From positions 20,700 through 84,699 of IMG/VR virus record IMGVR_UViG_3300033463_000070: DNA of 64,000 nt; one strand, 5' to 3'. The notes under the pieces are model-generated. The model searched no databases. It saw only the letters and a list, made by a program, of their open reading frames with translations, and was not told where the DNA came from. The DNA comes from a virus (taxonomy: Duplodnaviria > Caudoviricetes). Positions 5,134-64,000 of this stretch are shown one piece after another. Each line of letters opens with the position of its first letter. Positions within the stretch are counted from its first letter, which is position 1. Both the position numbers and the translations under genes were made by a program.

Positions 5134-5134
5134 T

Positions 5135-11100: not shown

Positions 11101-12673
11101 TATGTCTATTAATAATTTTTATTTTAAATCAGAATTTATTGACGAAAACAAATGGGATATTCGAAATATCGAAGGACCAAACAGAAAAGGAATTCGATAT
11201 TTAACCGATAAAGATGAAACTAATTATTTATCATTCCATTTTGATATTGACCTTGACAGTGTGGATGGTATTCAATTCTATATGAATGGGTTAAATAAAT
11301 CATTATCATATGCTCGTATGAATATTAAAGTTATCAGTAATAATCAAACCGAAACTATTAAAACTTTTGCTAGAAGTAATCTATTTGAAATCAAGGAAGA
11401 AATTTATAAAAAACATATGAATACAAAAGATATTACTATTGAACTTAATTTCTATGATGTAGAACTAAATTCAGAAATAATAATAAATGAATGTTTCTTG
11501 ATTGTGCAAAAAGACAATAAAAAGATTCATGTACCACAATTAAATGAACAAACATTATATATTGATAATTATGCAAATAAACATTATAAAATTAGTAGTC
11601 AAAATATGTGGGGACTTAACGACAAATCTCCACAATATTTAAACGGAAAAATGTTAGAAACAGGATTGCTTGCTTGCTTTGAATTTGACAATATTAATGT
11701 AGGAGATATATTTAAAATATATGACATAAACATGCACATGGTCTACAAAAACAAAGAAGGTAATATTATAACTGGTATACTACCTATAACCGAAGATAAA
11801 ATGAATATTCAATTAGTAGACGCTGATGTGGTTAAAAATAATGCAGAGAATTGGGGGTCATTCAGAGGAAATAGTGATGGTTTAAATAATTTAGAATCTG
11901 AAATTATTAACACAACTGATGAAAAATTGTTAGATTCTATCCCTATCTTAAATTCAGTATATCAATCATTCAAACCAGCAACAGAAGACTTTTATAAAGT
12001 TATATTGCAATACGCTGGTAAAGCTGGATATCCAAATGATAATATCATAGTATCTATATATGATGATTTAAACAATTCACCTGATGTTTGTTTAGCATCA
12101 AAAAGAATTACACTACCAACTGTAATGAAAGATATTGATATTGATTTCCATATCACTGGGTTAAATACAGAAGAACAATATTGGATTATGATTGAAGATG
12201 ATAGTGCTGATGAAAATAATTATCATAAATTCAGACATAATAGTCATAAAGAATTAGGTATGTTATATATACAAAAAGATGGAGTATCAACATTATATGA
12301 CCATATAGCATTAAGTATGGCTATTGGTAATGGATATGATATGAGTGAGTTCTTCGAATATCCTCATACATGTGAATTAGATAATAATAATAAAACTTTC
12401 AAATTATATGATTCATTTTATCGATTCGATGTGCAAACAAGTAGCAATGTTTATTTAAATAATCTTTTGATTAAGAGTGGATATAAACATTTCTGCACAC
12501 AAGAAGATATTGAAACAAGAGATGAAGAAGAACCATATGAAGATGAAGTATGGGATGGTCCTACTCAAGAAAGTAGTAGTTCCGAAAGTTTAACTCCTTA
12601 TCCTGATTGTGATGAATTGGATTGTGAGAGTTTAATAGAACCAGAACCGATAGAAGAACCAGAAAGTAGGTAA
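5135..12673 (+). CDS. Giant adhesin/baseplate-like protein (2512 aa) with DUF11-like repeats and a zinc-ribbon cluster
   Basis: DUF11-like units (LDVKTSVSNKTPYLNEIIDYTIKVTN; ITIGDEIYYVIEVIN). Central LQVLVDRVKPFGTK resembles the baseplate-wedge L..L...KP motif. Four CxxC-x9-10-CxxC units and an acidic C-terminal tail. Confidence 0.55.
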   Translation: MATKKVTIYPSKITTQATRSTETNTQILENKENLKSSNKSLAFWGVRHPTWKPSYLRRYPDSITTPSGSFNDPAPFTASKFKISGADKRSKVKNIWVEYKWEQISYSSTTAYGKFDKPIIKIKKGDKQLDSIYGAIPSKNRYDNCKSGSCQNVDSAELAKLHTHKLTGVSELTLDDLLNNVKIIFDPKKNTASNHCRIVIQFFRIIVEYTPYVSKDKKKDPPQIIDEEPEPQIIHPNYDISVKLDKKKALINEEYYCTLKVWNTVPNAEILSPLQVLLDIPVNTEISVVEMIGGGDITVNNGCQWYITDFENNMAQVKFICKTNLPVQQGTYIGSFFYPTTSQQGKSSDYIKIVSDDVEFSFYKSNTKSSFVQGSTEDNTSFFYVTMNASELPTGATIEIDTAGFITEETWGKWVKNTNDYDLNLVPNTNGIWKITNIKTQYIKLPSNLIDLTSQGAGQYTLLATYKKNEKILTRKIYLTVAGRKLQKEYFKLRLEDGSDVQYNDLSITEGDDLSIPLEFSMEDMYETFENNLIINGDTKRFSTKEARYASFDLYIESDEDETYENVIAYLDAYDEEYECEEIIIGADANIDLHTSNTGRTFCVIHELKTNTHNKLKFILQSDEPRETVIKLKPLNYDEYDTGKWKPMNITFKDIPDIQIKIKGPSEIIYHNNKEAEFKLQYIIQNKSNIKGEDIKFQLTEHTAFERDIYPYKFSAQYGASFNTPIFNDKKRTIYFPELSANGPEHILEVSYRARKKGIFEFAIQTVDYGNTLKDDQHYNIYRHKMLVNVTADLDVKTSVSNKTPYLNEIIDYTIKVTNRSKRQENLTFQIRDIGHYERNLHRKNDYNIIEWEGPGQFETKEDTEQEQWVNNYIGLWTLTNVQPDETNTLVLSLQPKDTGTHVINTITTDKNGNVQSFDDYVQVYEPDKKIDLNVYQAINQTEHENCCNPDILTEICDDDFITIGDEIYYVIEVINKERNDIHPADRVHGYLKEGAVVKVKIRLPKSFEYTGCATQDGDDGFEIDETGLITLHVDDITQCDSRKFCFKVIPQKKGKFVSNFILSARNTKTINKKLNLMVDSYFDERKTEHEITIYNFEKTNRYFRYELDGDNNLFKFYNKGDKSKRTVDVEKHNASKLEVYRGSTLKELVDKIKDESKYVEPELIRVGSNHLATKGYELYPNGFINRFGLLNSEVYHYTGQLPTIGNLVDYALRWDVDNWDQKVWTGKNYQNGVFSLTVNYSKIPTNFNILELTKPLNTLQVLVDRVKPFGTKAICYFSFDVKFEIKIVMDEIKSELLNDLSFNIKLEDLGLISWYNRHDNSVAIYFDLTKYYIDIDDDILISLSSQDKTFWDNKHIIGEVDAEYCVDVFNESRSRQYIEDAYDIVENLQDKSNYIKNVTISKHNVDEISPTSLLVTDKTTVNRIHNEDVFNFYFDYDINYDEKIGIFLDTEEGELYCQLIKNKLTHNQFQLIHPDGNIINTINKKNITNFKIQVQCFELNNKNKIIHFWCAINTLDYEYLGYYICSNTFAPSIFLFNKTSIGNTNNRICSYTYTSQKDDPITFSIDDNEHYTSPKYSEIYQTNSRYQWNNLNKIGKQPISLKTTLDSECEIKTIKPPKLMLRYDKFNLDRSDEIIDIFFDIKSNKAIENLNLGVFRDGTYYLPKKGVVKKIYMPHHIDNVIQEYNSTVSIQQPNITICSECLKTSLGYYNKCPYCSSESVTHQKEKQDVTICYNCGWVSDGWRTNCKHCLSKDIIRTTVDYNKTYCYNCRSMHDDYYSACPYCFSTNIIHLQNDSDMYRIYNQDITNIKPIVIQSDIEGSINVCNITIPLNKNSKKLDELKDLTLVMNVTNNNNGEYYYCETCETTGLGNPEKCPNCNESSPKYYHAINLYDNYNNKKSNLTMFVYSTVNGETSICEVTPNGGNVDGTVDIEIPILDLAKRNNRDSFNLIIDAENTIYKASKETIYKAPISNYGQEYLDKALQSIFMDMSINNFYFKSEFIDENKWDIRNIEGPNRKGIRYLTDKDETNYLSFHFDIDLDSVDGIQFYMNGLNKSLSYARMNIKVISNNQTETIKTFARSNLFEIKEEIYKKHMNTKDITIELNFYDVELNSEIIINECFLIVQKDNKKIHVPQLNEQTLYIDNYANKHYKISSQNMWGLNDKSPQYLNGKMLETGLLACFEFDNINVGDIFKIYDINMHMVYKNKEGNIITGILPITEDKMNIQLVDADVVKNNAENWGSFRGNSDGLNNLESEIINTTDEKLLDSIPILNSVYQSFKPATEDFYKVILQYAGKAGYPNDNIIVSIYDDLNNSPDVCLASKRITLPTVMKDIDIDFHITGLNTEEQYWIMIEDDSADENNYHKFRHNSHKELGMLYIQKDGVSTLYDHIALSMAIGNGYDMSEFFEYPHTCELDNNNKTFKLYDSFYRFDVQTSSNVYLNNLLIKSGYKHFCTQEDIETRDEEEPYEDEVWDGPTQESSSSESLTPYPDCDELDCESLIEPEPIEEPESR

Positions 12674-12678
12674 TAAAT

Positions 12679-12840
12679 ATGAAAATAAATACTGAGGCAC
12701 AAATAAAACAACATATGATTGAAATTACAAAAAAAGATACTGGAGAAAAAAAGTATCTTTGTAAAATGAATGACGAATGGAAAGAAATTTCAAAAGAGGA
12801 TTATAATAAAATTTTAGGTGATAACAATGGCAAGCAATAA
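12679..12840 (+). CDS. Small hypothetical protein (53 aa, below the ORF-track cutoff)
   Basis: Read directly as MKINTEAQIKQHMIEITKKDTGEKKYLCKMNDEWKEISKEDYNKILGDNNGKQ. Fills the gap and overlaps the next start. Confidence 0.6.
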   Translation: MKINTEAQIKQHMIEITKKDTGEKKYLCKMNDEWKEISKEDYNKILGDNNGKQ

Positions 12841-13252
12841 AATAATTACAGCAGAAGGAAAAACAAAAATGTTAGAATATGTTTTTGCTGGAGACGAAGG
12901 TTTTAATTATCTTGCATTAGGAGTAGGAGGAAGTACTAATGATGCAAGTAATGCATCTAGTACTGGAGATAAAAATGATTTTAACGAATTAAGTGGAAAC
13001 AATTACGAAAGAGTTGCCTTAGTTAAAGAAGGTAATACCGCAGCAGATTCACAATCAATTACTTTATCAGCCACTTTTACAGATAGTAATTATAATCCAT
13101 CAAACGGTGGAAATGTAGGTGAAATTGCTATCGTAAATAATGCTACAGCAAATGAAGAATTAGACACATTTTTCGCTTTTGCAGATATACCTGATATATT
13201 AAAATCTGATAACATTAGTTTAAAATACACTATTGTAATTTCAATATTATAA
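12827..13252 (+). CDS. Baseplate/tail-collar-type protein
   Basis: IITAEGKTKMLEYVF...YLALGVGG...YERVAL...GEIAI...FAFADIP pattern is typical of phage tail-fibre collar/baseplate proteins. The GGTGA RBS favours ATG 12827 over the 12818 start. Confidence 0.55.
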   Translation: MASNKIITAEGKTKMLEYVFAGDEGFNYLALGVGGSTNDASNASSTGDKNDFNELSGNNYERVALVKEGNTAADSQSITLSATFTDSNYNPSNGGNVGEIAIVNNATANEELDTFFAFADIPDILKSDNISLKYTIVISIL

Positions 13253-13263
13253 GGTGAGAACAA

Positions 13264-16200
13264 ATGCCCTCATATTATAATAGAATAAAAGGGACATTAG
13301 AAGTAGCCAAATTAGCTAGAGCATCAGATATACATTTAATTCAGTCTGGAATTCAAAACGCTATTTCTAATGTTATTATAGATATGTTTGGGCCAAGTTT
13401 TGTATTAGGAGAATCAGAAAACGATTTAAAACTTGTTCCAACTGCTATACATGTAGACCAAATAAATACAAGTTGTGATGAAGACAACCAATGGATTTCT
13501 TTTTACGATAGATATTTCAGACAATCTTTATTTATTGAAAAATCATCTATAGAATCAATCACATTAAATATGATAAATGATTCTAAAATAGAGACTACTA
13601 TTTATGCTGAAATAAGAGATATTAATTATAATTTACTAAAAGAAACAAACGCAAAACTTCATTGTACTGAATCTGATGGATACGAAGAAGTTACATTTCA
13701 TTTTGATTTACATCATTTAGGTGTGGGTAGATACTACTTTGTATTAAAACCTGTAGATATATCTGCCGCTGATTTGGCATTAAACGGTGATGAGGGCACA
13801 ATAGAAGTTATAGAACCAGAAATGTTTTGTGTAAGATATGATAGAGAAGGTAGCTACGAACAAGGACTCGAAGCATCATACAACGGAGTAGATTATTTAG
13901 ATGCTTGCTTACTTGAAGACCAACTCGAATACGAAGACGGAGAAACCTACACAACAACAAACAATAATTTCGACTTATATTTTGAACACACATTCAGCTC
14001 AGGAAACACATATCTAATTAATCCCGGAGCAGCTGTAGTACATGGACAAAAAGTATACGCACGAGATACACATGTCACAATTGCTGGACCATCTCCATTA
14101 GGGGATAGAACTGACTTAGTTGTTTTAACACAAGAAGGATATCTTAACGTTATAAAAGGCAGTGTTTATAATGGAGCAATCAAAAGACCAAGTAGTGATA
14201 GTGGATTAAAAATAGCATACATCACAAGTTACAAAACAGAAAATGCTGATTGGATATGTCCAAGTTGCCAAGTAAGTAATGATGGAAATTCAAGTGAATG
14301 TTATAATTGTGGTTCAACAATAAACACAAAAGTACCATTAATAGAACAAGCTGACGATAATGGTATGACTCGGCAAAGAGACGTTCTTGAACGATTACGT
14401 CGATTAGAAAAAATGATGACATATGAGCAAGAATATAATCGTCCAACAAGAGTTAAATACATTTGTACAAATGACCCAGTTGTTTTCCAAAGCAATGATG
14501 AATACGATAATACTTATATAGATGCTGATGCCCCATATGGAATGACAACTATTTATAAAGGAGGTCAGAGAGTAGATGTACCTGCCTCATCAGTAAGCAG
14601 TGAAGAATATATGTGGGCACTCAGAGAAGACCCATACGACCATCAAACATTTGCAGCCGTAACTGAAACTGAACGTGGTAAAATATATATATGGGACTTA
14701 GTTAATTATGATACCAAACCAAAAACAGTAGGATATGGAAATTATATTACAGTACGTGTTGAAGGAAGTAATGGACATGGAAAAGCAGGTATTCCAGTTA
14801 CAGTAAAAATTTCAGGAAAAGGCAATACCTTTGAACAAACAATCAACACAAATAAAAATGGAAATATTCGTATTAACCCTTATAAATCATTAAATTGGGC
14901 GGCCGGAACATATAAAATGCAAGCAACTCATAATGGAAAAACCGTATCAGCTACATATACTATTGTTAAAAAAACAAGCAAAAACGGAGATTATGTAGGT
15001 ATGGATTTAAATGTTGTTGATATGGATAGATATGATAAAAATTTATTAACATTAGAAGGAGCATCTGTAGATAAAACTGGACAACAATTAATATCTGCAA
15101 CTATATATTTAGGAACAGTTGCAGGAGGTGTAGGAACATTAATGGACTTTACACCTGTCGATAGGACGAAAGAACATACGGATTATACAAAAAAAGATTT
15201 TAAAAATTTAATTAAAGGATTTAAAACATATAAAATCAAAAGACACGCAGGAAATGTAGATATTATTGTAGGGTCACACACTCCAGAACCAGTTCACACA
15301 CGAGTCGTAGGAGAAAAAGTAATTACCGGAAATGATGCATTTCATTTTGAAAATGCAACTATCGATTTACAAAAAGGTAGTTTCCAAATAGCACAAGTCA
15401 ATGATAAAGATGACGAATATACAACAAATGAATTAATATCAGAAGCTAATCCAAACGAAAAAGCGGAAGCTGTATACACTATATACAATAACATTAAAGA
15501 AATGAATAGTGAATATCCTGTTTTAGATTTCCATTATCAAGGAGGGTATATACATAGTTTAACTCCTTATATTAAAAAATTTAAAAATATAGAATCATTT
15601 AAAATAATTCTTTTTGAAAATAATTTGACATTTAACCAAACAGAAAATCATAGATTACTATATCAAAAGAAAATTGAAGATGATGAAAATTTCCCAAATG
15701 TATATGTCAGTCCAGAAGTAGAAATTTCAAGTGCAGCAAAAACAGATAAATCAGGGAATAAAATATTAAATAATTATCATAAATTTATTGTAGACCAACA
15801 CATTCCACAAGGAAATTATTCATTATTCTTTTATGCCAAAATAGCTGAAGGATACACTGAGGGTGCTATATTTGTCGACGAATATCCAGCTATGAGTGAA
15901 TCTGATAAATATGGAACTGCTACTAAAGTACAAGGAACATGTAATCCAGCCATAATAAGCTTAGAAACTAACAGTGCATCTGGTAATACATGGGATTTAC
16001 TTCGTGAAGAAAAAAGTAATCAATACAAAGCTACAGGTATAGTTATTTCCAAACCAATATCTGTAGATAGTAATTATGAAATAAGGTCTGTCAAATTAGA
16101 TTATAATAATAAGATACCTGATGGATGTGATATGACAATTCAAGTATCTAATGATGGAGGAAGAAATTGGGTTACAGCTAAACATAATATAGTAACATTC

Positions 16201-18573
16201 AGTGGATTAGGTAGTATTTTTGAATGGAAAGTAGTTATGAGAGGTAACGGGACAGGAACTCCAATGCTTGAATTTGATTATGATAGAGGTTATGCTCTTA
16301 AAGTCACATTAAATACAATTACAAGTGATTATGTATCATATGAAGATTATGGTAGGTGTTTACCTACTCCGGTTATGGATTTCACAGCTATGACATATAA
16401 GGTATTTGGAGATTCTACTATAACTCAAAAAGACTTCAGTGAATGGGAATGGGCTCGTTTGTTTATGGAAGATGAAGATAGATTAAATAATATTACTATA
16501 CTTATATCAAATGGTAATACTGACGATAACCCTATTTATACTAGTACAAGAATGGATGATTGGAATAGAAATTTATTCTTCCATCAAGCAATTTGTGATT
16601 TAACATTAGATGATTTTGAACATACTTCAATAGATTATAGCAATTATGACCCAACTATAGAGCATGATGAATATAATTTTAGATTTAAATATGATACGGA
16701 ATACGGAGAAACAGTCGGCTCAGGGGTAGCTATAGGTGACTGGAGAAACGCAAAAGCATTTGCTAATTATCCAATAATTGATATGGGTAATTTTGAAAGT
16801 GTTGATAAAAGTAATATCTCATATGTATACAGAGGAAATGCAGGAAATGTATGGACTCAATATTCAGGTACAAAAGCAATTGCGGAACCATATTGGGGAA
16901 CAAGATATTTAGGACCTCAAGATTCAGCAAATAATTCAACCGCAAAATATTACAATTCAGAAGACGATAATACTTATGACAGAAGAGCAATTATAGCAGG
17001 AATGCTGTTTGAAGATGGACTCACTATTGATGATAAATATCTTGATTTAACTCTTGATATTTTTGTATCCATGGGAAGCACAGAAGGAAGACCAATCGAT
17101 GAAAACAACGATGCTATAAAATACGATGAAAAAGGAAAACCTATACACAAAACAGATGACAATGGTGTTGCGTTATACAGTGATGTTGCAAAAATACATC
17201 CATTATATGAAGAAGAAACCGGTGTAGCATACTTCCCGGGTGGAACATTTGAAATAGTTGTATCACTTAACCCATATGGACTTATGGATAATGATGCAAG
17301 TTATGGACAAAGATATACAATCACTAATAGATTATATAATAATACATATAATAAAATATCTATTCCAGACATCTTTGATGATTTTGTTGGAAGTGACATT
17401 TATTGTATAGGAATAAGAGCTATAGATAATAATAGTAGTGCCATCGATGGTCAAAGCGTAGGTGGACTAAAACAAGGTGATGTTATCGGAATAGGAGATT
17501 TAAAATTCGGTAGTCATGATAGATTATTATATTGGCCATCTACTAGACGATATGCATGGAAAAAAGGTGCTATGGTAGATGAAGGAAGAATGACAAAACA
17601 ACATTCATATGCCTCAGTACAAGAATATCTAAATGGAATAGGCACAGTAATTTTCCCATTAACAAGAGATTATCCAAGAGATAAAAATGGTAGACATTAT
17701 CCTAACCCAAATTTTGAAACTCGTGATATTGAAGAAGCTGTAACAAAACCTTCAGCACGATATAAAGATAGTTATGGTGGAACACAATTTGTGGATGGAG
17801 AATACAGTGGGCTTGGAACTCCATTAAGATACAGACAAACAGATAATGGAGTCAAAAAAGGTGAATACACTCCTTGTGGAGAATCAAGTAATGCAAATGA
17901 TATACATATCGCTGGAGACAAAATATTAGATGGAAATAATCACAGTACTGATTTGCAATTCCCACAAATGATATTTACATTCCTTAAGGAACCCGTAGTT
18001 GATGAACCGTCATTTTATATAGATGTCGATTTTAATTTAGACGCTTATAAATGGGTAAGAATTGAACATTGGATAGAATCTGAACTAATAAACCAAGAAC
18101 CATCAGATAACGAAAAAAATAGATATAATGATGGATTCACCTATTATACTCAAATGCCTGATGGAAAATGGACCAAAACACAAGGACAATTACACGCCGG
18201 AGATATAGTTGTTGAATTTTATGACACAAGAGACCACACAGATAATGGAGTAAAACCGGTTGAAATATTTAATTTACCTGCATGGGGAAGAATACAAACA
18301 AGGTCTAAAGCAACAAATAAAGAAGTTAATGCATGGTTTAAAGTACGTAATGGTGGAAGAATTAAACGTATAGTTATTAAGCGTAAAAACCCAACAGGAG
18401 ATACCAATATATCTTATCCTTTAAGATTACATCTTTACGATATTGGTATGCACAGAGAACAAACTGTACCAGCATTAGGTTCACAATTACAAATGAGAGT
18501 TTATCCAAAAGCAGAAGCAACAGGGGACAACACAAATATCAGAAAATTTGGAGTTGTTTATAGAATAGCATAG
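13264..18573 (+). CDS. Large tail fibre / receptor-binding protein (1769 aa)
   Basis: GGTGA RBS. N-terminal ARASDIHLIQ and DRTDLVVL motifs resemble tail-fibre attachment regions. Contains QVSNDGGRNW, one zinc ribbon (CPSC-x9-CYNC) and an Ig-like segment. Confidence 0.55.
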   Translation: MPSYYNRIKGTLEVAKLARASDIHLIQSGIQNAISNVIIDMFGPSFVLGESENDLKLVPTAIHVDQINTSCDEDNQWISFYDRYFRQSLFIEKSSIESITLNMINDSKIETTIYAEIRDINYNLLKETNAKLHCTESDGYEEVTFHFDLHHLGVGRYYFVLKPVDISAADLALNGDEGTIEVIEPEMFCVRYDREGSYEQGLEASYNGVDYLDACLLEDQLEYEDGETYTTTNNNFDLYFEHTFSSGNTYLINPGAAVVHGQKVYARDTHVTIAGPSPLGDRTDLVVLTQEGYLNVIKGSVYNGAIKRPSSDSGLKIAYITSYKTENADWICPSCQVSNDGNSSECYNCGSTINTKVPLIEQADDNGMTRQRDVLERLRRLEKMMTYEQEYNRPTRVKYICTNDPVVFQSNDEYDNTYIDADAPYGMTTIYKGGQRVDVPASSVSSEEYMWALREDPYDHQTFAAVTETERGKIYIWDLVNYDTKPKTVGYGNYITVRVEGSNGHGKAGIPVTVKISGKGNTFEQTINTNKNGNIRINPYKSLNWAAGTYKMQATHNGKTVSATYTIVKKTSKNGDYVGMDLNVVDMDRYDKNLLTLEGASVDKTGQQLISATIYLGTVAGGVGTLMDFTPVDRTKEHTDYTKKDFKNLIKGFKTYKIKRHAGNVDIIVGSHTPEPVHTRVVGEKVITGNDAFHFENATIDLQKGSFQIAQVNDKDDEYTTNELISEANPNEKAEAVYTIYNNIKEMNSEYPVLDFHYQGGYIHSLTPYIKKFKNIESFKIILFENNLTFNQTENHRLLYQKKIEDDENFPNVYVSPEVEISSAAKTDKSGNKILNNYHKFIVDQHIPQGNYSLFFYAKIAEGYTEGAIFVDEYPAMSESDKYGTATKVQGTCNPAIISLETNSASGNTWDLLREEKSNQYKATGIVISKPISVDSNYEIRSVKLDYNNKIPDGCDMTIQVSNDGGRNWVTAKHNIVTFSGLGSIFEWKVVMRGNGTGTPMLEFDYDRGYALKVTLNTITSDYVSYEDYGRCLPTPVMDFTAMTYKVFGDSTITQKDFSEWEWARLFMEDEDRLNNITILISNGNTDDNPIYTSTRMDDWNRNLFFHQAICDLTLDDFEHTSIDYSNYDPTIEHDEYNFRFKYDTEYGETVGSGVAIGDWRNAKAFANYPIIDMGNFESVDKSNISYVYRGNAGNVWTQYSGTKAIAEPYWGTRYLGPQDSANNSTAKYYNSEDDNTYDRRAIIAGMLFEDGLTIDDKYLDLTLDIFVSMGSTEGRPIDENNDAIKYDEKGKPIHKTDDNGVALYSDVAKIHPLYEEETGVAYFPGGTFEIVVSLNPYGLMDNDASYGQRYTITNRLYNNTYNKISIPDIFDDFVGSDIYCIGIRAIDNNSSAIDGQSVGGLKQGDVIGIGDLKFGSHDRLLYWPSTRRYAWKKGAMVDEGRMTKQHSYASVQEYLNGIGTVIFPLTRDYPRDKNGRHYPNPNFETRDIEEAVTKPSARYKDSYGGTQFVDGEYSGLGTPLRYRQTDNGVKKGEYTPCGESSNANDIHIAGDKILDGNNHSTDLQFPQMIFTFLKEPVVDEPSFYIDVDFNLDAYKWVRIEHWIESELINQEPSDNEKNRYNDGFTYYTQMPDGKWTKTQGQLHAGDIVVEFYDTRDHTDNGVKPVEIFNLPAWGRIQTRSKATNKEVNAWFKVRNGGRIKRIVIKRKNPTGDTNISYPLRLHLYDIGMHREQTVPALGSQLQMRVYPKAEATGDNTNIRKFGVVYRIA

Positions 18574-21319: not shown

Positions 21320-21348
21320 ATTGAATACCTCGATTTTTTTTTAAAAAA

Positions 21349-21382
21349 AAATCCCAATCTATGATTAAATAGATTGGGATTT
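21349..21382 (-). terminator. Perfect 14-bp stem hairpin followed on the minus strand by a U-tract
   Basis: AAATCCCAATCTAT-gattaa-ATAGATTGGGATTT, then a run of T on the minus strand, just upstream of the rbr RBS. Confidence 0.6.
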
Positions 21383-21444
21383 AGAGGTGAGTTATATGGT
21401 TTATAAAATATTTGAAAACCTAATAGTATATATGACAGTCATCA

Positions 21445-21459
21445 TATATAAAGTTTTCG
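21445..21459 (-). promoter_or_regulatory. Archaeal BRE-TATA promoter
   Basis: Minus strand CGAAAAC-TTTATATA. Confidence 0.65.
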
Positions 21460-21462
21460 GTT

Positions 21463-24042: not shown

Positions 24043-24717
24043 TTATTGATTATTTTTTGTACATAATTCAGTAAACATTTTGTCTAATTCATTCATATCT
24101 TTTTCAGAAATTTTTGAAAATCTTAAAGTTGATAATTTTGATTCAATGTTATCTAAATAAACTTTTAATTTTATCATATAATTTTTATCATCTTCATTTA
24201 AAATAAATGGTTCATCAATTATTTTACACATTGTATCAAATACTTCAATCTCCTGAAGTAAAGATTTAATATTTGCAATACTAACATTATCATTATGTAC
24301 TTGTGATATTTTTCTTTTTATCATTGCAATAAATGATATCATTGGTGGGTGTTCTTGTGCGAAAAACAATATATCATTAAAATCTTTATCCATTATAACT
24401 GCATCTGTCAAAAATTTATAATATGATGGTGACCCAAAATAATATGCAAAACCTAATAAAGCTCCTAATTCAATAAACATAAATTCATGTCCATCTATGT
24501 TTTTTGATATGTCTGAGTCAGGTCTTGTTAAAAAAGTTAAGTAATTATGCAAGGAATGAATAAATATCCCGCATACATTACCATCTTTTTCGTAGATACT
24601 AAGTATTCTAATATTGTTTTGTTCTTCAAGTGTTTGTTTTGCTATTTGTAATATTTCATCATCAATTGGTCTATTCGGATTCTTGATAATCTCCGTCATA
24701 CTCATTAACAGCACCAT
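24043..24717 (-). CDS. Possible degenerate RlaP/PF10127-like nucleotidyltransferase-fold protein
   Basis: IRILSIYE...GIFIH...YL..L...ELGALL...P..Y resembles the PF10127 scaffold, but the GS...DSDxD catalytic loop is absent. By-eye alignment only. Confidence 0.3.
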   Translation of the reverse strand: MVLLMSMTEIIKNPNRPIDDEILQIAKQTLEEQNNIRILSIYEKDGNVCGIFIHSLHNYLTFLTRPDSDISKNIDGHEFMFIELGALLGFAYYFGSPSYYKFLTDAVIMDKDFNDILFFAQEHPPMISFIAMIKRKISQVHNDNVSIANIKSLLQEIEVFDTMCKIIDEPFILNEDDKNYMIKLKVYLDNIESKLSTLRFSKISEKDMNELDKMFTELCTKNNQ

Positions 24718-25177
24718 CCACTCTAATGTCTACTAACTGTGCGAATCGTTCTCCTTTTGTTATTACAAAATCTACTGGAAGATAGTTCATAATTAAGAAA
24801 GAAAGCGAACCGAAATAGCCATTATCACCAACTGCAGTCATTACATGCGTTCCGCAACGCAATAAAGTTGAACGAGGTCTATAAAATTGTAAAGAATCTT
24901 TGTCTATTTTTATTTTATTTTGTACAGTAGCAATGTAGGGAACATTAGGTCGCAGACTGTAAACATTTTTTATCTGCCCATTAACCGATAATGCGTTCAT
25001 TACTAATTCACTTCTATCTGGAATAACTTTTAATCCATCTATAATTCCATAAAATTTATTATTTCCTACATCAAATTCTTCTATTTTTCCTAAACGCAAA
25101 TCAAGTCCACCGGGCTGAAAACACTCGTCATCAAATTCTAGATATCTTTTTCTTAATATTTTTTCGCCATTAATCAT
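24671..25177 (-). CDS. dut: Trimeric dUTPase (archaeal-type; dCTP deaminase superfamily)
   Basis: QPGGLDLR, PRSTLLR, VGDNGYFG, GERFAQLV. Lacks the dCTP-deaminase catalytic Glu after the DxGY/F.G motif. Confidence 0.75.
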   Translation of the reverse strand: MINGEKILRKRYLEFDDECFQPGGLDLRLGKIEEFDVGNNKFYGIIDGLKVIPDRSELVMNALSVNGQIKNVYSLRPNVPYIATVQNKIKIDKDSLQFYRPRSTLLRCGTHVMTAVGDNGYFGSLSFLIMNYLPVDFVITKGERFAQLVDIRVDGAVNEYDGDYQESE

Positions 25178-25833
25178 TCTTCTTCCTCCGCTACTTTTTT
25201 AAATTCTTTATAAATTTCTTTCGCAAATACAACAGCTGTTCTTTTTAAAGCTAATAAATGCAAATGCTTTCTATTACTTTTTGGATGTTTGTATTGATAT
25301 TTACTTTTATAATCTTCATATAATTGACTGTAACGATAATCATCACGTATCAATTTAACAGTACAACGCATAATAGTTTTATTTAATCCTTCACAAAAAT
25401 CAATAGGGTCTGTTTTTTTATTGGCTACTTTCTTTCCATTAATATTTCTTTTAACTTTATAATATTTATTACTACTATTTCTTATAACAGGAGCAAGACC
25501 CGCATATGATATGAAATGCTTACGATTTTTAAATCTTTTAATATCTCCTATTTCGACTATTAATTCTGCCGCATCGTATAAATTTATTGATGGAATTTCT
25601 TTCAAAAATCCCATATATTCATTTGAAAAGTATAATATATTTTGTATTTCATCTCGTAATTTTTGCAATGGTTCATCAAATGGTTTAATACTTATATCTT
25701 CAAGTCTTTTTGACCTTGATTCATTTATATTTCCAAGCATTTTTAATCGATGTTTATTACTTCTGGATGCTTGAAAAACAGTTTTATTTGTATTAAATAA
25801 TATAGTTAAAACTTTTCTTTCGTTTGTATCCAT
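25174..25833 (-). CDS. IS110/IS116/IS902-family C-terminal (Tnp/Nop-like) domain protein lacking the RuvC domain
   Basis: LKEIPSINLYDAAELIVEIGDIKRF...SYAGLAPVIRNSS matches Transposase_20. Only about 65 helical residues precede it, with no DEDD domain. Has its own GAGGT RBS. Confidence 0.78.
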   Translation of the reverse strand: MDTNERKVLTILFNTNKTVFQASRSNKHRLKMLGNINESRSKRLEDISIKPFDEPLQKLRDEIQNILYFSNEYMGFLKEIPSINLYDAAELIVEIGDIKRFKNRKHFISYAGLAPVIRNSSNKYYKVKRNINGKKVANKKTDPIDFCEGLNKTIMRCTVKLIRDDYRYSQLYEDYKSKYQYKHPKSNRKHLHLLALKRTAVVFAKEIYKEFKKVAEEEE

Positions 25834-25835
25834 AA

Positions 25836-26450
25836 CTATAACCTCAATATATTTTTCTTTGCTTTCTTGCTTAATCGAGGAACTTCATCAAGTTCTTCTT
25901 CAGTTGCATTTAACACAGCACTTGGTGTTCCAAAATGTTTAAGCAATTTTTTAGCTGTTTGTTTTCCCACTCCATCTATACCAATTAATACATTTTCAAA
26001 TGCATTAGATGTTTTGGGTCTAACATTAGGAACTTCAATAGGTTTATCTGCTTTTTCTACTGCATTAATAATAGCAAGAATACATTCAACAAAATGAACA
26101 AAATTTTCAACCCAAAATACTGGAACATGATATCGAATTGTTAATGATGCGATATTTGCATATCGTTGAGTTAATGTTTGTTTGGAATATTTAGAATTTA
26201 ATTTACCATCATTATAACATATTATATATGAATACGGATATTTTTGTTTCATTTTAATTGCTTCTTCTTGTATTCTACGATTGGTGCACGAAGATATAAA
26301 ATCTTGTCTCGTTTTTACTTCAATAGCAATTTTATTATTAATAATAATATCTCCAGTTTCTAATCGCTCAACAGTTACATCAAAATATTGTTCTAACCGT
26401 TTAATTCGACGTGGGTCTTCTCTATCATCAACAGTGATTTTTATCATCAT
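25836..26450 (-). CDS. ERCC4/XPF-type nuclease with C-terminal (HhH)2
   Basis: VDDRE, LETGD, IEVKT..DF..S (ERKxxxD-like), then LIGIDGVGKQTAKKLLKHFG...LDEVPRL. Resembles the archaeal Hef C-terminal domain. Confidence 0.88.
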   Translation of the reverse strand: MMIKITVDDREDPRRIKRLEQYFDVTVERLETGDIIINNKIAIEVKTRQDFISSCTNRRIQEEAIKMKQKYPYSYIICYNDGKLNSKYSKQTLTQRYANIASLTIRYHVPVFWVENFVHFVECILAIINAVEKADKPIEVPNVRPKTSNAFENVLIGIDGVGKQTAKKLLKHFGTPSAVLNATEEELDEVPRLSKKAKKNILRL

Positions 26451-26459
26451 ATTTTCCTC

Positions 26460-27407
26460 CTATATATATAAATTTTGACCTTTACATTCGTTTGAACAAC
26501 ATATACCATTTGCTTTTTGAGTAGGACAGGAAGAAAATAATATATCATCTCTTGAAAAAAGATACTCTAATTGTCCTTCTTCTTCTATACAATGATAGAA
26601 TTTGTTTGATGATAATGATTGTTCTAATATATGTTCTACTTCTTCCTCAGAATAACCATCATCACGTAAATAACATATTAATTCACGACGTTCATGGTAT
26701 CCTAAATCAGGAGTAGATAATAAACATTTTACACAAGGAGGAAATTCGGTACTAAAATCAATTTTTCCTATCGTTTCTGCTTTTAATGGTGATATGATTT
26801 GCTTTGTTTCGTCAAAAGGTTGTAGTGATAATCTTGTTTTTCCATGTATATAGTCACAATTATTGTTATTCTTTTTTGCCAATTTACATATATCATTATA
26901 TGATAGTTCAAATAACTGTTCATATGTAATTGGAATACAATACAAACCAGTTTTTAAATTCTTAGTACCTATTATCCTTGATACCCTTCGTAGGTCACCT
27001 ATAACAGCTGGGTCTGACGTAGATTGTGTTCTCTGATGTAAATCTTTGACAAATTTTTTAATTGCTAATTTAGGTTGCTGCAAACTTTCCTCCGGTTTAG
27101 TCATTATAAAAATATGAAAGCCTCGACCACTAAACCGAATAAAGAACAAATAATCCTTGTTATTTAAGTACTCTGCCACCCTGCGTACATCTTCATAGAA
27201 CTTCAAATCTTTATCGTAATCAAAATCCAAAAATACTCTATCTACATAAGCATTTTGAGCATTAGGAATATCTTTATAATCATACACAGATACATACATA
27301 TTTTTTTTACCATTATATATCTGAATAAATTTATTAATCTCTTCTTTGTCTTGAACTGTTATTCTTATTTTTGGGATAAATAATTCTTTAACTAACATCT
27401 TCATCAA
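26460..27407 (-). CDS. Archaeo-eukaryotic primase, PriS catalytic domain fused to a PriL-like Fe-S domain
   Basis: FLDFD (motif I), SGRGFH (motif II), D..RVSR..GT.N (motif III). C-terminal FPPC...HERR...SC....GIC...EC. Confidence 0.85.
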   Translation of the reverse strand: MMKMLVKELFIPKIRITVQDKEEINKFIQIYNGKKNMYVSVYDYKDIPNAQNAYVDRVFLDFDYDKDLKFYEDVRRVAEYLNNKDYLFFIRFSGRGFHIFIMTKPEESLQQPKLAIKKFVKDLHQRTQSTSDPAVIGDLRRVSRIIGTKNLKTGLYCIPITYEQLFELSYNDICKLAKKNNNNCDYIHGKTRLSLQPFDETKQIISPLKAETIGKIDFSTEFPPCVKCLLSTPDLGYHERRELICYLRDDGYSEEEVEHILEQSLSSNKFYHCIEEEGQLEYLFSRDDILFSSCPTQKANGICCSNECKGQNLYI

Positions 27408-28538: not shown

Positions 28539-29124
28539 CTAGTCCAACATAATGAAATCTTCCCGGTTTGATTCCTAATTTGTCTGCTACATATAATTGT
28601 ACTGTCATAAGAGCATACATATTTGATGGAAATGCATATCTTATATCATTTGACCTAAATATAACTGTCATTTCTAGTTGTCTTTGATATATAGAACATT
28701 TTATCATAATTAAGCAAGGAATATCTTCAAGATATGTATCTGTCTGTGGGTCATATGTTATTGCGATAGCTCTACGAGTATTTTCATCTTCTTTAAGTCT
28801 ATCAATCATAACTTGATATTGGTCTACATCAAAATATTCTATTAGTCTATTCCCATATGTATATACAAAATCATGTATATTTCCATCTAATAATTGGTCA
28901 GCATATTTTTGTAAACCCTCATTATTAAAAAAGGTATTTTTTGGTACTTTGACCGCTTTTGCATATCCAAAATCATTAATATGGTCTTCAAAATGTAATG
29001 CTACAAAAGGAATTTGATAAACAATATCTCCTCTTTGGTCAATTACTTTCTTACCTTGTGTCGTTATTATGTAATATAAATAATTAAATGCATCATCTAT
29101 ATTATCATAAACTTTATTACTCAA
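28513..29124 (-). CDS. thyA: Thymidylate synthase, archaeal (methanogen-like) type
   Basis: YTYGNRL, RRAIA, DIPCL (catalytic Cys), FRSND, PSNMYAL, DAH. Confidence 0.88.
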   Translation of the reverse strand: MSNKVYDNIDDAFNYLYYIITTQGKKVIDQRGDIVYQIPFVALHFEDHINDFGYAKAVKVPKNTFFNNEGLQKYADQLLDGNIHDFVYTYGNRLIEYFDVDQYQVMIDRLKEDENTRRAIAITYDPQTDTYLEDIPCLIMIKCSIYQRQLEMTVIFRSNDIRYAFPSNMYALMTVQLYVADKLGIKPGRFHYVGLDAHWKGDE

Positions 29125-29591
29125 TTTATTGCCTCCTCTATTAATTTATGGATTATATTGATAGTGAACCATTCTTCAAAATAACACCCTCCAATATAAT
29201 ATCCGTCATAATATAATCTAAATGGTCTATTTCTATTTTGATTTTTGTGACTTATATAATGTGTCTTTTTACTATCCCAAAATTTATATTTTCCATTATT
29301 TTTTCTTTTAGGATATTGTCCAATTCCCCCTTTAGTGAAATTAAACTTAGGATTATAATACTTTATAAATAATCGTTCATAAGCATCTAATTCGTCCTTA
29401 GAACATTCCACTTCAATTTGAATAGAATATCGTAAAGGGTCTGATTGTAATACCCTATTAATTGGTTGAGTATTTTTAGAGCTTTTAATTAAATGTTGTC
29501 TATGTCTTTTATATATATCTTTGCTTTGTCCTATGTATACAACTTTAAAGTCATTTTTTATATCTCTGTAACTATAAATTCCGCATGGCAC
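29121..29591 (-). CDS. Free-standing GIY-YIG homing endonuclease
   Basis: GIYSY...VYIGQSKDIYKRH.QH...E..FI. Overlaps the thyA start by 4 nt. Confidence 0.85.
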   Translation of the reverse strand: MPCGIYSYRDIKNDFKVVYIGQSKDIYKRHRQHLIKSSKNTQPINRVLQSDPLRYSIQIEVECSKDELDAYERLFIKYYNPKFNFTKGGIGQYPKRKNNGKYKFWDSKKTHYISHKNQNRNRPFRLYYDGYYIGGCYFEEWFTINIIHKLIEEAIN

Positions 29592-32124: not shown

Positions 32125-33063
32125 TCATACTACTTTCTTAAGAAAAATTTTTTCAAAATCCAAATGCTTATCAAATTTAGGAATCACCCTATCATATTCT
32201 GGCATTTCAAAATAACATTTTTCAGCTATTTTATGAGTATTATCAATACACAATTGTATTATATCATCATCTACTCCTGACATTCTTCCAAATTTATAAC
32301 ACAACTCTGTATTACCTAACACATTACTTTCAAGTGTATCTGATATTTCTGATTCAGCTTTTTTCCAATTAATGCTTTGTAATTTTTTTCTTAATATCCT
32401 ACCCGCATCAGTAAGAACATGACTATCAAAAGTATTAATTAACCATTTGCAATCAGTATCTTCATATAATTTTATAAGTTTTTCATTTAATATGTTCTGA
32501 GGATATAATCCTTTGTCATTTTGCCAAGTTGGATGATATTGAAGCTCTATTGCAACATTATCTTTGCCAAATTTATCAAGCAATTTATTAAGAAAGGAAT
32601 AAGCTATGTCATCTTGTCCTTTTTCGAAGTTTTGACATATATATGATAATGCACAAGCAGTTGATACAAAAATTCCTTCTGTATTTTCAAATAAAATATC
32701 ATGAGGAAGTAAAGGTTTATAATAAAAATGGTCAGTAACAGATAATCTTTGCATTTTACGAATATTAGTTGCTCCTACATCATTCATAGCCAAACAAACT
32801 AAATGATAACGATTTCTGTCTTGTGGCTTTTCTAAAGTAGGTTTGCAATAAAATTCGTTTCCAAAAATTGGTTTAACATTTGATTGCTTACATTCCTGCT
32901 GTAGAGCATACCAATTAGCTACTGTACCATGGTCAGTAATTGCAATATACTCTTGACCATAATCTTCTACTTGTTTAACTAAATCCGGAATTTTGATGAC
33001 AGAATCACCAATACTAGCATCAGTATGTAAATGAAGATTTACGAAATTTTTTGTATTTGTCAT
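32125..33063 (-). CDS. dnaE: Stand-alone PHP domain of DnaE (N-terminal part of the split polymerase)
   Basis: HLHTDAS, ITDHG, GNEFY, HLVCLA, ELQYH, FDSH, NT..IAEKC. AAGGAG RBS favours ATG 33063 over 33090. Confidence 0.92.
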   Translation of the reverse strand: MTNTKNFVNLHLHTDASIGDSVIKIPDLVKQVEDYGQEYIAITDHGTVANWYALQQECKQSNVKPIFGNEFYCKPTLEKPQDRNRYHLVCLAMNDVGATNIRKMQRLSVTDHFYYKPLLPHDILFENTEGIFVSTACALSYICQNFEKGQDDIAYSFLNKLLDKFGKDNVAIELQYHPTWQNDKGLYPQNILNEKLIKLYEDTDCKWLINTFDSHVLTDAGRILRKKLQSINWKKAESEISDTLESNVLGNTELCYKFGRMSGVDDDIIQLCIDNTHKIAEKCYFEMPEYDRVIPKFDKHLDFEKIFLKKVV

Positions 33064-34102
33064 ATAAAAATTCTCCTTTTTCAATTTCATTAATCATTTT
33101 ATTATATTTTTGCTTATCTTGAATATCCCAATTATATCCGTCTTTTGTTACTATATCTTTTAATTTAAATAAATCTGTATTTTGTTTTCTGTATATTACC
33201 TGTCCATTTTTCTCAATTATATATTTAAAAGTATATCCTTGTTTAGCATTTGTTTTACAAGTGCTTAAATGTAATACTCCTGTAGGATTAGTTTTTTGTA
33301 TTTTTCCGTATGCCATTAAATTATCTCCCCTTTTTATAAGTTTATCTGTATTTTCATTGTAAAATAATTTTGCCCATGGTAATTTTTTTGCCTCTACTTT
33401 TTTCTTTAATTCGTAAAAATTTTTTGATGTTAAAGAATAATTATCATATTTGTACATCCATATATTTGTTGTGTTATTATAACTGACCCCAAAATATCCT
33501 GATGTATTTTGAGCGATTTTAAAAAAATCTTTTTCTGAAAAAATATTAAAATCAACATAAGTTTCTTTTTTAATTTTTTCTACTTCATCATTATGAAATA
33601 TTTTCTTCCATAATAATCCCTGTGATTTAACTTTATATTCAAGTATATTTATATTTTTAGATGATATTTTACATCTTCGTTTATTTTTGTAATAAGAATA
33701 AATCCAACGAAAATTTTGAGTACCATGACAATCTACTTGTTTATATACTCTATAATACCCTGTCTTATTACCTCTATTTTTAGACATTTTTTCACGTGTT
33801 TTTTGTGACAAATGAAAAACATCTCCACCAGATGATAAATTATAATGTTTATCATCTTTATATGTATTATAATATTGTATCCAATATTTTTCTCGTTCAT
33901 TTAATATATCTCTATTACATTTTTCAACAATAATTAAATTAAAATTATTTTTTTTATATTTATTAATTGCTCTATCAATATAAGAATTTTCAATACAATC
34001 TGACTTACAATGTTCATTAAATCTCTGTTCTATATTAATTGATTGCCCAATATACATCTGTCCTGTTTTTTTGTTTTTTATCATATAGATGCCACAAGTC
34101 AT
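33020..34102 (-). CDS. GIY-YIG homing endonuclease with repeated C-terminal DNA-binding modules
   Basis: GIYMI...MYIGQS..I..RF..H...LNERE.YWI...YNL. Repeats NKTGYYRV / NTSGYFGV / NPTGVLHL. GAGGT RBS favours ATG 34102. Confidence 0.88.
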   Translation of the reverse strand: MTCGIYMIKNKKTGQMYIGQSINIEQRFNEHCKSDCIENSYIDRAINKYKKNNFNLIIVEKCNRDILNEREKYWIQYYNTYKDDKHYNLSSGGDVFHLSQKTREKMSKNRGNKTGYYRVYKQVDCHGTQNFRWIYSYYKNKRRCKISSKNINILEYKVKSQGLLWKKIFHNDEVEKIKKETYVDFNIFSEKDFFKIAQNTSGYFGVSYNNTTNIWMYKYDNYSLTSKNFYELKKKVEAKKLPWAKLFYNENTDKLIKRGDNLMAYGKIQKTNPTGVLHLSTCKTNAKQGYTFKYIIEKNGQVIYRKQNTDLFKLKDIVTKDGYNWDIQDKQKYNKMINEIEKGEFLYDKYKKFRKSSFTY

Positions 34103-34103
34103 A

Positions 34104-34307
34104 TTAAAACCTCTTGAGGTCATCTATACTAAGACTTAATAAAAAATCAGGTTCGGGGATTTCAATTTTAATAACATTATTACGAATGTTACGATGATGA
34201 ACTACCCCATAATTTCCTTTTGTCTTTGTTACTACTTTATCTTTTGTTTTTTTGTATAAATTTAATATATTTAATCCATCATGATATAATATGTCATAAT
34301 CATTCAT
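34104..34307 (-). CDS. Hypothetical protein
   Basis: ORF track, coupled overlap. Confidence 0.5.
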   Translation of the reverse strand: MNDYDILYHDGLNILNLYKKTKDKVVTKTKGNYGVVHHRNIRNNVIKIEIPEPDFLLSLSIDDLKRF

Positions 34308-37429: not shown

Positions 37430-37442
37430 TATCATCTCCTTT

Positions 37443-37490
37443 AAAAAAAATAGCCCACTCCTGAGTATTCAGGGTGGGCTATCTTTTTAA
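37443..37490. terminator. Bidirectional terminator hairpin
   Basis: A-run, ATAGCCCAC..CTGAGTATTCAG.GTGGGCTAT, then T-run, between convergent genes. Confidence 0.75.
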
Positions 37491-37502
37491 ACTAAGGAGA
37501 AT

Positions 37503-37778
37503 CTATAAAACTGATTTTATAACTTGTTGATATGTTTTGTATTGATTTTGTCCTATTAATTGATGATTAAATATTTTATATTTTCTTATTATAAAATTTT
37601 TATCTGTTTTTACAATAATATATGCAATATTATTATCTTTATAAAATATTAATTCTTCTTCATTAATTTTTAAATCAGAAAAATCTGAACCTTTGAGCTC
37701 TCTATTAAATACAATCATAATACCATTTTTATTTTTATTTATAAGCCCCGATTGCGTAATCCCAAAATATAAAATCAT
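37503..37778 (-). CDS. Hypothetical protein
   Basis: ORF track. Confidence 0.4.
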   Translation of the reverse strand: MILYFGITQSGLINKNKNGIMIVFNRELKGSDFSDLKINEEELIFYKDNNIAYIIVKTDKNFIIRKYKIFNHQLIGQNQYKTYQQVIKSVL

Positions 37779-37851
37779 AATAACTTATTATTATATCCAA
37801 ATGGATAACGAGGCTTATTATATTATGATTAACAATCTTTAAGAGGAAGAT

Positions 37852-63360: not shown

Positions 63361-64000
63361 TCTAATATATAAAAATTTACTTTTTGAAAAAAATTTTTTT
63401 AAAAAAAATTTTGTATTTTTATTTTTGTGATATAAAATGATAAAAAGTGTTACTATGTGGGACAGTATAGGATGGGACTTTTTTCTTTTACCTCCCCCTA
63501 AAAACTTTTAAAAAAATATATTTATATATAGGTGTAAGTAAAGTGAAAAGTACCTAAAATGTCAAAAATATGTTACACATGGTATGATAATAATTGATTT
63601 TTGTATTACTATATTGAAAAAAAGAAAAAAAGAAAGGTTGAAATTTTGTTATTCCAATTTATCAAATTCATAATTAAGAAAGCGAGTAACTTTTTTTTAT
63701 GGAATTGTGTTGTGCTTTCTTGTTTATTTGTTTTATTTTTTGTGGTATTTAAGTTTTTTGGGTGGTATAACATTGTTATGAAAAGTAGGGATACTCTGTG
63801 ATTTTGCGGAATGACATTTTTTTTTGTATGTAAGTAAGAAAGAAATAAAAAAAGTTCCCCTTGTTGTGGGGGGGGTATGGAGATGATATTATGATTTTGA
63901 AGGGAGCATTTGCTCCCTTTCTTGACTTTGTTTGAGTTTATAATGAGTTTTTTGGAGAGGGAAAAGGTTGTGAAAATGTTAAAAATATGGAAACCCTCTC
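63361..64000. other. Long non-coding region, candidate replication origin/control region or genome end
   Basis: Largest gene-free stretch, next to the helicase start. Contains A/T tracts, TTTATATA at 63521, G/C runs and the inverted repeat AAGGGAGCA-tt-TGCTCCCTT at 63900-63919. Confidence 0.35.

Follow-up and report, generated by a model that had tools for sequence, protein, structure and literature searches.

A TasA-like Nop-domain protein encoded next to an ERCC4 nuclease in the replication operon of a tailed-virus lineage

What is a protein whose closest database names read "transposase" doing beside an ERCC4 nuclease in a viral replication operon? The question is raised by a 64,000-nucleotide stretch of DNA (the window), which comprises positions 20700–84699 of a single 84.7-kb viral contig (IMGVR_UViG_3300033463_000070), with a G+C content of ~28% and a CheckV completeness of 58% for the contig. 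The two genes in question are adjacent on the minus strand. The first in transcription order encodes a nuclease of the XPF/Hef type and the second a 219-residue protein, called here the Tas-like protein, and the reading that is tentatively favoured is that they form an RNA-dependent two-protein nuclease, which would act on a fixed viral target. The features of the pair are as follows (HhH, helix-hairpin-helix).

25174–25833, minus strand: Tas-like solo Nop-domain protein (TasA-like), 219 residues, assigned from a PF02371 match, an AlphaFold2 model and a fold match
25836–26450, minus strand: ERCC4-(HhH)2 nuclease of the XPF/Hef C-terminal type, 204 residues, assigned from PF02732 and HHH_5
25841–25845, minus strand: GAGGT, Shine-Dalgarno-like site for the Tas-like gene, read from the sequence

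The Tas-like protein and its family

The sole Pfam match of the Tas-like protein is to PF02371 (Transposase_20, E 3e-12, residues 77–135); the protein begins at a coiled coil and contains no fused nuclease domain. Its alignment-based AlphaFold2 model (predicted local distance difference test, pLDDT, 89.3; predicted template-modelling score, pTM, 0.82) contains an N-terminal coiled-coil hairpin (helices 3–32, 38–48 and 50–68), an HhH-like core with the GDIxRF...YAGLAP motif, then a C-terminal helical bundle, and a β insertion at around residues 115–145, which is of low confidence. The original prediction, made from the sequence before this analysis, had described a short helical region joined to the IS110 Tnp domain and had placed the protein in the IS110/Tas/Nop fold class, and both the Pfam match and the model are in line with that description.

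A VIA-align search of the model against 48,161 chains gave as the best match TasR (PDB code 9MTY; Z 19.9, root-mean-square deviation 2.5 over 190 residues, model residues 3–219), which is the TaTasR structure of the TIGR-Tas paper (PMC12045711). TasH (Z 16.5), the IS110 enzyme ISCro4 (Z 15.7) and Nop5 (Z 8.7) were also matched, while the remaining matches cover the helical hairpin only. The ranking by Foldseek agrees, with 9MTY at E 1.6e-7. The Nop5 alignments are restricted to the coiled coil plus the Nop part and score far below Tas (Z 8.7 for 1NT2 and 7.5 for 3ICX), and the model has nothing N-terminal to the coiled coil from which a fibrillarin-binding domain could be built. Profile searches of the PDB point the same way. 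The profile of the close family matched TasR alone (E 4e-4), and a broader family profile, A2, matched TasR 9MTY over the whole Nop domain with E 3.7e-19, as against E 0.095 for IS621 and 0.13 for ISCro4. On the profile and fold comparisons, the protein is most probably a nuclease-less member of a distinct branch of the Tas Nop-domain lineage, TasA-like by architecture, and it is not a truncated IS110 protein.

The family is large and uniform, far beyond a chance open frame, and its gene occupies the same place in each related virus examined. A word-indexed search returned more than 100 full-length homologues of 218–237 residues with 43–93% identity, located on contigs of up to ~150 kb and one of 308 kb, and an exhaustive search returned 139 cluster representatives, the best of which are solo proteins of the same length or fragmentary ones. 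The ESM Atlas search returned PF02371 clusters only. In an alignment of 32 full-length relatives the invariant residues, which include R100, F101, Y110, G112, L113 and K140, are located in the GDIxRF...YAGL core and in the C-terminal helices.

The original prediction had regarded the protein as a domesticated IS110 protein. That it is a retained viral gene holds; the proposed origin does not, because the nearest affinity of the protein is to the Tas Nop domain and IS110 is more remote. The prediction had also seen the IS110 catalytic serine as kept. GLAP-x4-S is indeed present in the window protein, but among the 32 aligned proteins the serine is found only there and in the closest relative, the column being otherwise mostly K, G or N, and in distant family members the whole serine loop is deleted or swapped for a Cys-rich insertion. 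The absence of a DEDD RuvC domain is borne out by the lack of a PF01548 match.

The protein thus shares with IS110/IS621 the coiled coil plus Tnp/Nop fold (Z 15.7) and the PF02371 match, and differs in having no DEDD RuvC domain, no conserved serine, no bridge-RNA flank and no mobility, with profile E values of ~0.1. A decaying or domesticated IS110 transposase fragment without a function of its own would explain why the top Pfam and PHROG names are those of transposases, why the NCBIfam IS110 model scores 48.8 bits and why full-length IS110 proteins are weakly matched (E ~1e-6, the alignment starting at their residue 120–150). This reading is scarcely credible and was rejected, as synteny, selection and the affinity to TasR, which is closer than IS110 in both sequence and fold, all contradict it. 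The more than 100 homologues are of uniform length and free of frameshifts, the serine is not conserved, the DEDD domain and flanking non-coding ends are missing, and each of the three viral contigs searched contains a single copy in fixed synteny. The ratio of nonsynonymous to synonymous substitution rates (dN/dS; Nei-Gojobori, NG86) is 0.12–0.33 in the 12 least-diverged pairs of Tas-like genes, with dS ~1 or higher and saturated. Together with the uniform length and the fixed synteny, these ratios exclude a decaying fragment; the neutral evolution and decaying IS110 fragments that the original prediction had named as telling against itself are not observed, the gene being under purifying selection. 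The single copy, the synteny and the dN/dS well below 1 likewise agree with its statement that the gene is not a mobile element.

The ERCC4 partner and the replication operon

The 204-residue partner contains ERCC4 (PF02732, E 7e-15) and HHH_5 (E 2e-10) domains. It aligns end to end with the XPF of Aeropyrum pernix (2BGW/2BHN, E 5e-10) and matches the NCBIfam Hef nuclease model (E 1e-27) at positions 571–772 of 781, which is the C-terminal nuclease part. The DxRE, GD and E-x-K-x3-D residues of the signature (GDXnERKX3D plus DxRE) are conserved in all ten orthologues aligned, whereas the arginine of ERK is V, T or L. As the motif residues are kept but this arginine is replaced, the nuclease is predicted only as likely to be active. 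The dN/dS of its gene is 0.21–0.44 in the least-diverged pairs, again with saturated dS. The partner is therefore similar to the short XPF of A. pernix (2BGW) and to Hef in its end-to-end ERCC4 + (HhH)2 arrangement and in its acidic and lysine motif residues, but it is viral, its ERK arginine is replaced and, unlike in Hef, it is coupled to a Nop-domain gene and not to a helicase domain. Cellular short XPF depends on PCNA.

The two genes are tightly and anciently linked, as a translationally coupled pair. As the original prediction had noted, the Tas-like gene starts 2 nt past the ERCC4 stop codon and overlaps the dUTPase-like gene by 4 nt, in an ATGA junction at its own stop codon; both junctions can be read directly in the sequence, and they leave no place for insertion-sequence ends or a non-coding flank, which the prediction had also reported as missing. 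The ribosome-binding site that it ascribed to the gene corresponds to GAGGT, 8 nt before the ATG and within the last ERCC4 codons. The coupling extends to the relatives, since in every locus of the gut/rumen clade ERCC4 is directly upstream with a gap of −1 to +4 nt, and most relatives have a 1-nt overlap between the ERCC4 stop and the Tas-like ATG. Wherever a locus includes upstream context, the Tas-like family adjoins ERCC4 only.

The order primase, ERCC4, Tas-like gene, NrdD is conserved from ~150-kb gut/rumen viruses down to the virus PhiF1. It is found in six IMG/VR contigs (50–66% identity), in a clade of 40% identity, on a 147-kb contig of a metagenome-assembled genome (MAG) labelled Clostridia, and on a Methanobacteriaceae MAG contig, whose Tas-like protein has a Cys-rich insertion. 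Variable open-reading frames (ORFs) of ~60–355 residues, on the coding strand, are located between primase and ERCC4 in loci L003–L006 and after the Tas-like gene in L002, L003 and L009; in the gut/rumen clade such insertions flank the pair and never split it. The two most distant relatives differ in this respect: in PhiF1 (MK994522.1) the two genes are 217 nt apart, apparently with a small unannotated ORF between them, and in the Methanobacteriaceae MAG they are separated by a short unannotated ORF (L075:4752–5000). The intervening ORF of PhiF1 (L010:3628–3843) resembles a small helix-turn-helix protein, and the gut/rumen clade has no such ORF.

This adjacency bears on the possibility that the Tas-like protein is an RNA-guided repressor of the TasA type, unrelated to the nuclease, with ERCC4 as a mere operon neighbour. 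Such a repressor would bind DNA by way of a guide and block transcription or replication, perhaps so as to schedule the expression of viral genes or to shut off a host gene. A nuclease domain is absent from the protein, and TasA and catalytically dead TasR were shown to be RNA-guided transcriptional repressors (bioRxiv 10.64898/2026.09.09.750476). The reading is nevertheless unlikely, as ERCC4 is adjacent in every gut/rumen-clade locus with overlapping stop and start codons while the other neighbours vary by insertions, the family is found only next to ERCC4 where upstream context exists, and a guide was not found in the genomes scanned.

PhiF1 is a cultured Methanobacterium virus with Methanothermobacter as host. 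Its operon comprises DnaE, PD-(D/E)XK, the primase-like ORF55, ORF54, ORF53 and then NrdD, so that ORF54 and ORF53 stand in the same order as the window pair, with the 217-nt gap as a difference. ORF54 is annotated as "putative ERCC4-type nuclease" and ORF53 as "transposase 20 superfamily-like protein", and the record carries no Tas-like interpretation of the latter. With 25% identity over 122 residues (pairwise E 4e-6), ORF53 is by sequence a distant homologue of the window protein. As the same pair is present in a cultured virus, the question of its function is testable at the bench.

In the annotated phage collection, the ERCC4 protein matches Methanobacteriales viruses only (PhiF1, Drs3, vir080 and vir249), and the family most probably belongs to tailed viruses of Methanobacteriales, the window virus being one of gut methane-producing archaea. 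A bacterial host (Bacilli or Clostridia), suggested by the MAG labels, was considered and rejected, since Methanobacteriales are indicated alike by the ERCC4 protein, by the operon and by the closest viruses with annotation. That the pair belongs to the core of the replication operon in a lineage of Methanobacteriales viruses is well supported.

In viral contigs, relatives were recovered by an alignment-based search; a single-protein scan returned nothing. Among 301 Methanobacteriaceae genomes searched with profile A2, one MAG contig carries the Tas-like family, and additional weak matches are located in long open frames resembling IS110 transposases. The distant family members (P0115–P0132) were not found in IMG/VR, and a metagenome scan for them yielded nothing beyond a 1.1-kb contig that lacks upstream context.

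The genes that adjoin the pair in the window are the following.

26460–27407, minus strand: archaeo-eukaryotic-type primase (PHROG primase E 1e-13, weak Pfam primase matches)
24671–25177, minus strand: dCTP deaminase/dUTPase-like gene (PF22769 E 1e-16, PF00692 E 1e-7)

The primase gene is the upstream operon neighbour of the pair and is syntenic across all relatives. Both genes belong to a minus-strand run from ~19.7 kb to 36.5 kb of the window, which in transcription order contains a GIY-YIG endonuclease gene, the DnaE PHP subunit, the DnaE polymerase core, a second GIY-YIG gene, a thymidylate-synthase-like gene, a PD-(D/E)XK nuclease, a 135-residue ORF, the primase, the pair, the dCTP deaminase/dUTPase-like gene, a 224-residue ORF, the anaerobic ribonucleotide reductase NrdD and a rubrerythrin. 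The GIY-YIG ORFs (29121–29591 and 33020–34123, minus strand) occupy differing places in relatives, as expected of homing endonucleases; one is directly upstream of the DnaE PHP gene, and the other is placed between the DnaE polymerase core and the thymidylate-synthase-like ORF, which matches only the C-terminal part of its Pfam model.

A possible RNA-dependent nuclease and its alternatives

In the tentatively favoured reading, the Tas-like protein would dimerise via its coiled coil and bind a small RNA that is encoded in trans and not arranged in an array. A DNA site would be opened by pairing of this RNA with both strands, as in TasR and TasA, and an ERCC4 dimer would cut the single-strand/double-strand junctions, supplying in trans the cut that is made in TasR and TasH by the fused N-terminal RuvC or HNH domain. 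The target would be a fixed site or structure involved in replicating the virus or processing its genome, rather than that of an adaptive system against mobile genetic elements; a fixed target is the more likely because the pair belongs to the core genes and does not change position.

In the structure of TasR, the 18 bp of the target are opened, a 9-nt spacer is paired with each of the two strands, and the strands displaced are left single-stranded (PMC12045711). Single-strand/double-strand junctions of this kind are cleaved by XPF-family nucleases. In the viral operon the nuclease gene precedes the Nop gene, just as the nuclease domain precedes the Nop domain in TasR and TasH. The unwinding by TasR, the junction cutting by XPF and the matching of gene order with domain order are the reasons why an RNA-dependent two-protein nuclease is favoured, and RNA guidance of the Tas-like protein is considered plausible.

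The known Tas proteins are the closest reference for this reading. With TasA the viral protein shares a solo Nop domain, a coiled-coil hairpin, the lack of a nuclease domain and a viral setting, and the Nop domain of TaTasR is its top match in both sequence and fold. The loop at the Y/H processing-loop position has only ~5 residues in the model; a similarly short loop is found in the Tas proteins of the stem-loop type, which rely on other factors for processing (bioRxiv 10.64898/2026.09.09.750476). The window family differs from TasA in belonging to a core replication operon, always paired with ERCC4, while TasA was described in 2025 as having no clear protein association except occasional ParB-like genes (PMC12045711). 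A compact, array-less TasR clade is similar in that a Tas protein is encoded in a viral genome packed too densely to leave space for an array between genes, and the source of any guide is an acknowledged open question; that clade has RuvC and no coiled coil (bioRxiv 10.64898/2026.09.09.750476), whereas the window family keeps the coiled coil, is devoid of RuvC and has a separate ERCC4 gene upstream.

TasA and array-less viral Tas proteins are thus already published (PMC12045711; bioRxiv 10.64898/2026.09.09.750476). The literature searched contains no report joining TIGR-Tas or tigRNA with ERCC4 or XPF. Known TIGR-Tas effectors have a fused RuvC or HNH domain or are nuclease-free, as is the repressor TasA. 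If the favoured reading is true, the pairing of a TasA-like protein with a separate XPF/Hef-type nuclease would add a third mode in which the Nop scaffold is armed, and an RNA-guided family would be linked to the archaeal and eukaryotic XPF-Mus81 nucleases. The pair is of real interest to the field of RNA-guided systems, and it bears on where array-less Tas proteins of dense viral genomes find their guides, or whether they need them.

The published arrays are of two types (PMC12045711; bioRxiv 10.64898/2026.09.09.750476). The dual-repeat type has alternating 8–12-nt repeats and ~9-nt spacers in units of ~36 nt. In the other type the tigRNA units are stem-loops with box C/D-flanked dual spacers within the stem, which can be scattered and can be located upstream of, downstream of or inside tas. 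An array was detected in 6,685 of 20,096 tas loci (same sources). The present scan for periodicity (periods 24–100, three or more units) covered this 58%-complete genome, two complete relatives (IMGVR_UViG_3300028833_000074 and IMGVR_UViG_3300028886_000003, 152 and 145 kb) and PhiF1; a synthetic array of at least three units was detected as a control, at three units just above the threshold.

Several results weigh against an RNA-dependent nuclease. No guide RNA or dual-repeat array was found in the four genomes scanned, and as a point of difference from TasA neither type of TIGR array was detected there; for the window, both TRF and the periodicity scan agree with the original prediction, which had seen no tandem TIGR-like array. 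A regular expression for the TasR-type UG...CCA pattern gave isolated hits with non-matching repeats and nothing array-like, judged against a crude shuffle null. RNAalifold on the insertion-coding stretch of the tas gene (~residues 94–160) gave three pairs and −1.1 kcal/mol, that is, no conserved structure. The NCBIfam scores of the Tas-like protein are below the cut-offs, at 42 against 100 bits for TIGR_Tas_endo and 49 against 140 for IS110. Searches for longer proteins composed of both genes returned no ERCC4-Nop fusion, which is weak evidence. In the smaller methanogen viruses Drs3, vir080 and vir249, ERCC4 has no Tas-like neighbour, so the nuclease works alone there. Finally, a gene that is core and holds a fixed place in a replication operon could equally well encode a housekeeping factor for DNA processing; in methanogen viruses this core status points to a housekeeping rather than a defence role.

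An alternative is a guide-independent accessory subunit, in which a programmable guide was lost or never present and the Tas-like protein serves as a structure-specific nucleic-acid-binding partner of ERCC4. It would use the HhH-like core and the coiled coil, which in TasR rests on the minor groove of the A-form RNA/DNA duplex, and possible roles involve primer RNA/DNA hybrids, flaps, forks, junctions, recombination-dependent replication and debranching of concatemers. The pair is encoded right after the primase and among DnaE, PD-(D/E)XK, the dUTPase-like gene and NrdD in all relatives, which suits such a role, as do the lack of a detected array or guide in the genomes scanned and the absence of a PADLOC match for either the Tas-like or the ERCC4 protein. 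Unlike typical accessory modules of defence or competition, the gene is core across a deep divergence (25% identity to PhiF1 ORF53). On the other side, the characterised members of the fold (Nop5, Prp31, IS110 and TasR/H/A) all bind a specific RNA (PMC12045711), the whole Nop domain is conserved including the C-terminal helices that align to TasR, and the ERCC4 nucleases of related viruses manage without a Tas-like protein. An accessory subunit of this kind is somewhat unlikely and comes next in probability after the two-protein RNA-dependent nuclease; if it were true, the protein would be the first member of the fold class shown to work without a specific RNA.

Repeats and structured RNAs

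Rfam at gathering thresholds finds no RNA family in the window. Two of the regions that the original prediction had proposed as bound RNAs (21335–21425 and 37430–37500) turn out to be terminator-like hairpins with U runs, with z scores against shuffles of −7.0 and −8.6, respectively, and the third region is unstructured at 63361–63500. The upstream part of 21320–21462 includes a palindrome with TTTATATAT, a possible promoter or operator ahead of the rubrerythrin gene.

A different, structured RNA is an element of ~92 nt at window positions 37741–37833 (minus strand), ~12 kb from the Tas-like gene, which was found by comparing intergenic DNA among three genomes and is far more conserved than the surrounding proteins. 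Copies in relatives are located at L043:3460–3561, L040:1941–2038, L055:5740–5837, L060:1484–1583, L061:1495–1598 and L069/L070:1501–1600. In the two complete relatives it is placed among tRNA genes, and in all complete or near-complete relatives checked it is 10–12 kb from the Tas-like gene.

The minus-strand fold contains a 10-bp outer stem, an internal loop and an inner hairpin that is free in sequence and compensated. The 5' strand of the loop is nearly invariant, the 3' strand also begins with UAAUAA, and the 3' tail of the element pairs with the 5' loop strand to form a pseudoknot. In the six sequences compared, pairing is seen in 97.3% of cells and 11 pairs are changed on both sides, the structure having been derived from the same six sequences, which favours it. 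Values as high as those observed were reached by 0 of 500 shuffles on four of five measures and by 7 of 500 on the fifth; pairing in the slid controls is 31–45%. The clade of 40% identity shows further compensatory changes in all three helices, and the wobble pairs are possible on the minus strand only.

No Rfam family matches the element. Its model, R1, was not found in PhiF1, a further difference of that virus from the window, or in 121 Methanobacteriaceae genomes, an absence that is weak as only a fraction of the candidates was scored. The stem, two loop strands and hairpin resemble a stem-loop tigRNA with an extended loop; the positions corresponding to spacers, however, are conserved in the element, and one of them takes part in the pseudoknot. 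Only its joint presence with the Tas-like protein in a single viral clade connects the two, and the RNA is regarded as a candidate partner and not as a component of the system.

If this or another hard-wired small RNA of the virus were the guide, the Tas-like protein, ERCC4 and the RNA might form a three-part RNA-guided nuclease acting on a fixed site in the viral DNA itself, for example in origin nicking, recombination-dependent replication or processing of genome ends. The ~92-nt element would be the leading RNA candidate. The probability of this arrangement is low; if true, the TIGR-Tas principle would here serve a housekeeping, non-adaptive purpose, with the nuclease, of the XPF family, acting in trans.

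The periodic hits in the gut/rumen viruses are all located in open frames and have periods divisible by 3, and are therefore coding repeats and not arrays. Among them, after NrdD, are the 45-nt (15-residue) coding repeats rich in K, E, Q and Y at L003:12659–15106 and L005:11969–12482, which are absent from the window. In PhiF1 (L088), three non-coding clusters at 3621–3748, 4842–4926 and 5470–5543 consist of near-identical direct repeats of the GTATTACTGAGG type, with periods of 37, 32 and 34 and a 16–21-nt spacing with no variable spacers, and are annotated as repeat_region. They were considered as TIGR arrays and rejected, since near-identical repeats devoid of variable spacers look like iterons or operators. 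The first two clusters have in common a AAAGTTGCCCCCGGTGATAATTTTTATT box, which adjoins each.

The complete 145-kb relative (IMGVR_UViG_3300028886_000003) contains, near its right end, unusually long stretches with no ORFs of at least 50 residues (139852–142328, 142482–143067 and 143329–144795), in which no tRNAs were found. In the window itself, positions 1030–18573 (plus strand) comprise three giant ORFs of 1367, 2512 and 1769 residues with only weak immunoglobulin-like or DUF11 matches, which are presumably tail-fibre or adhesin proteins.

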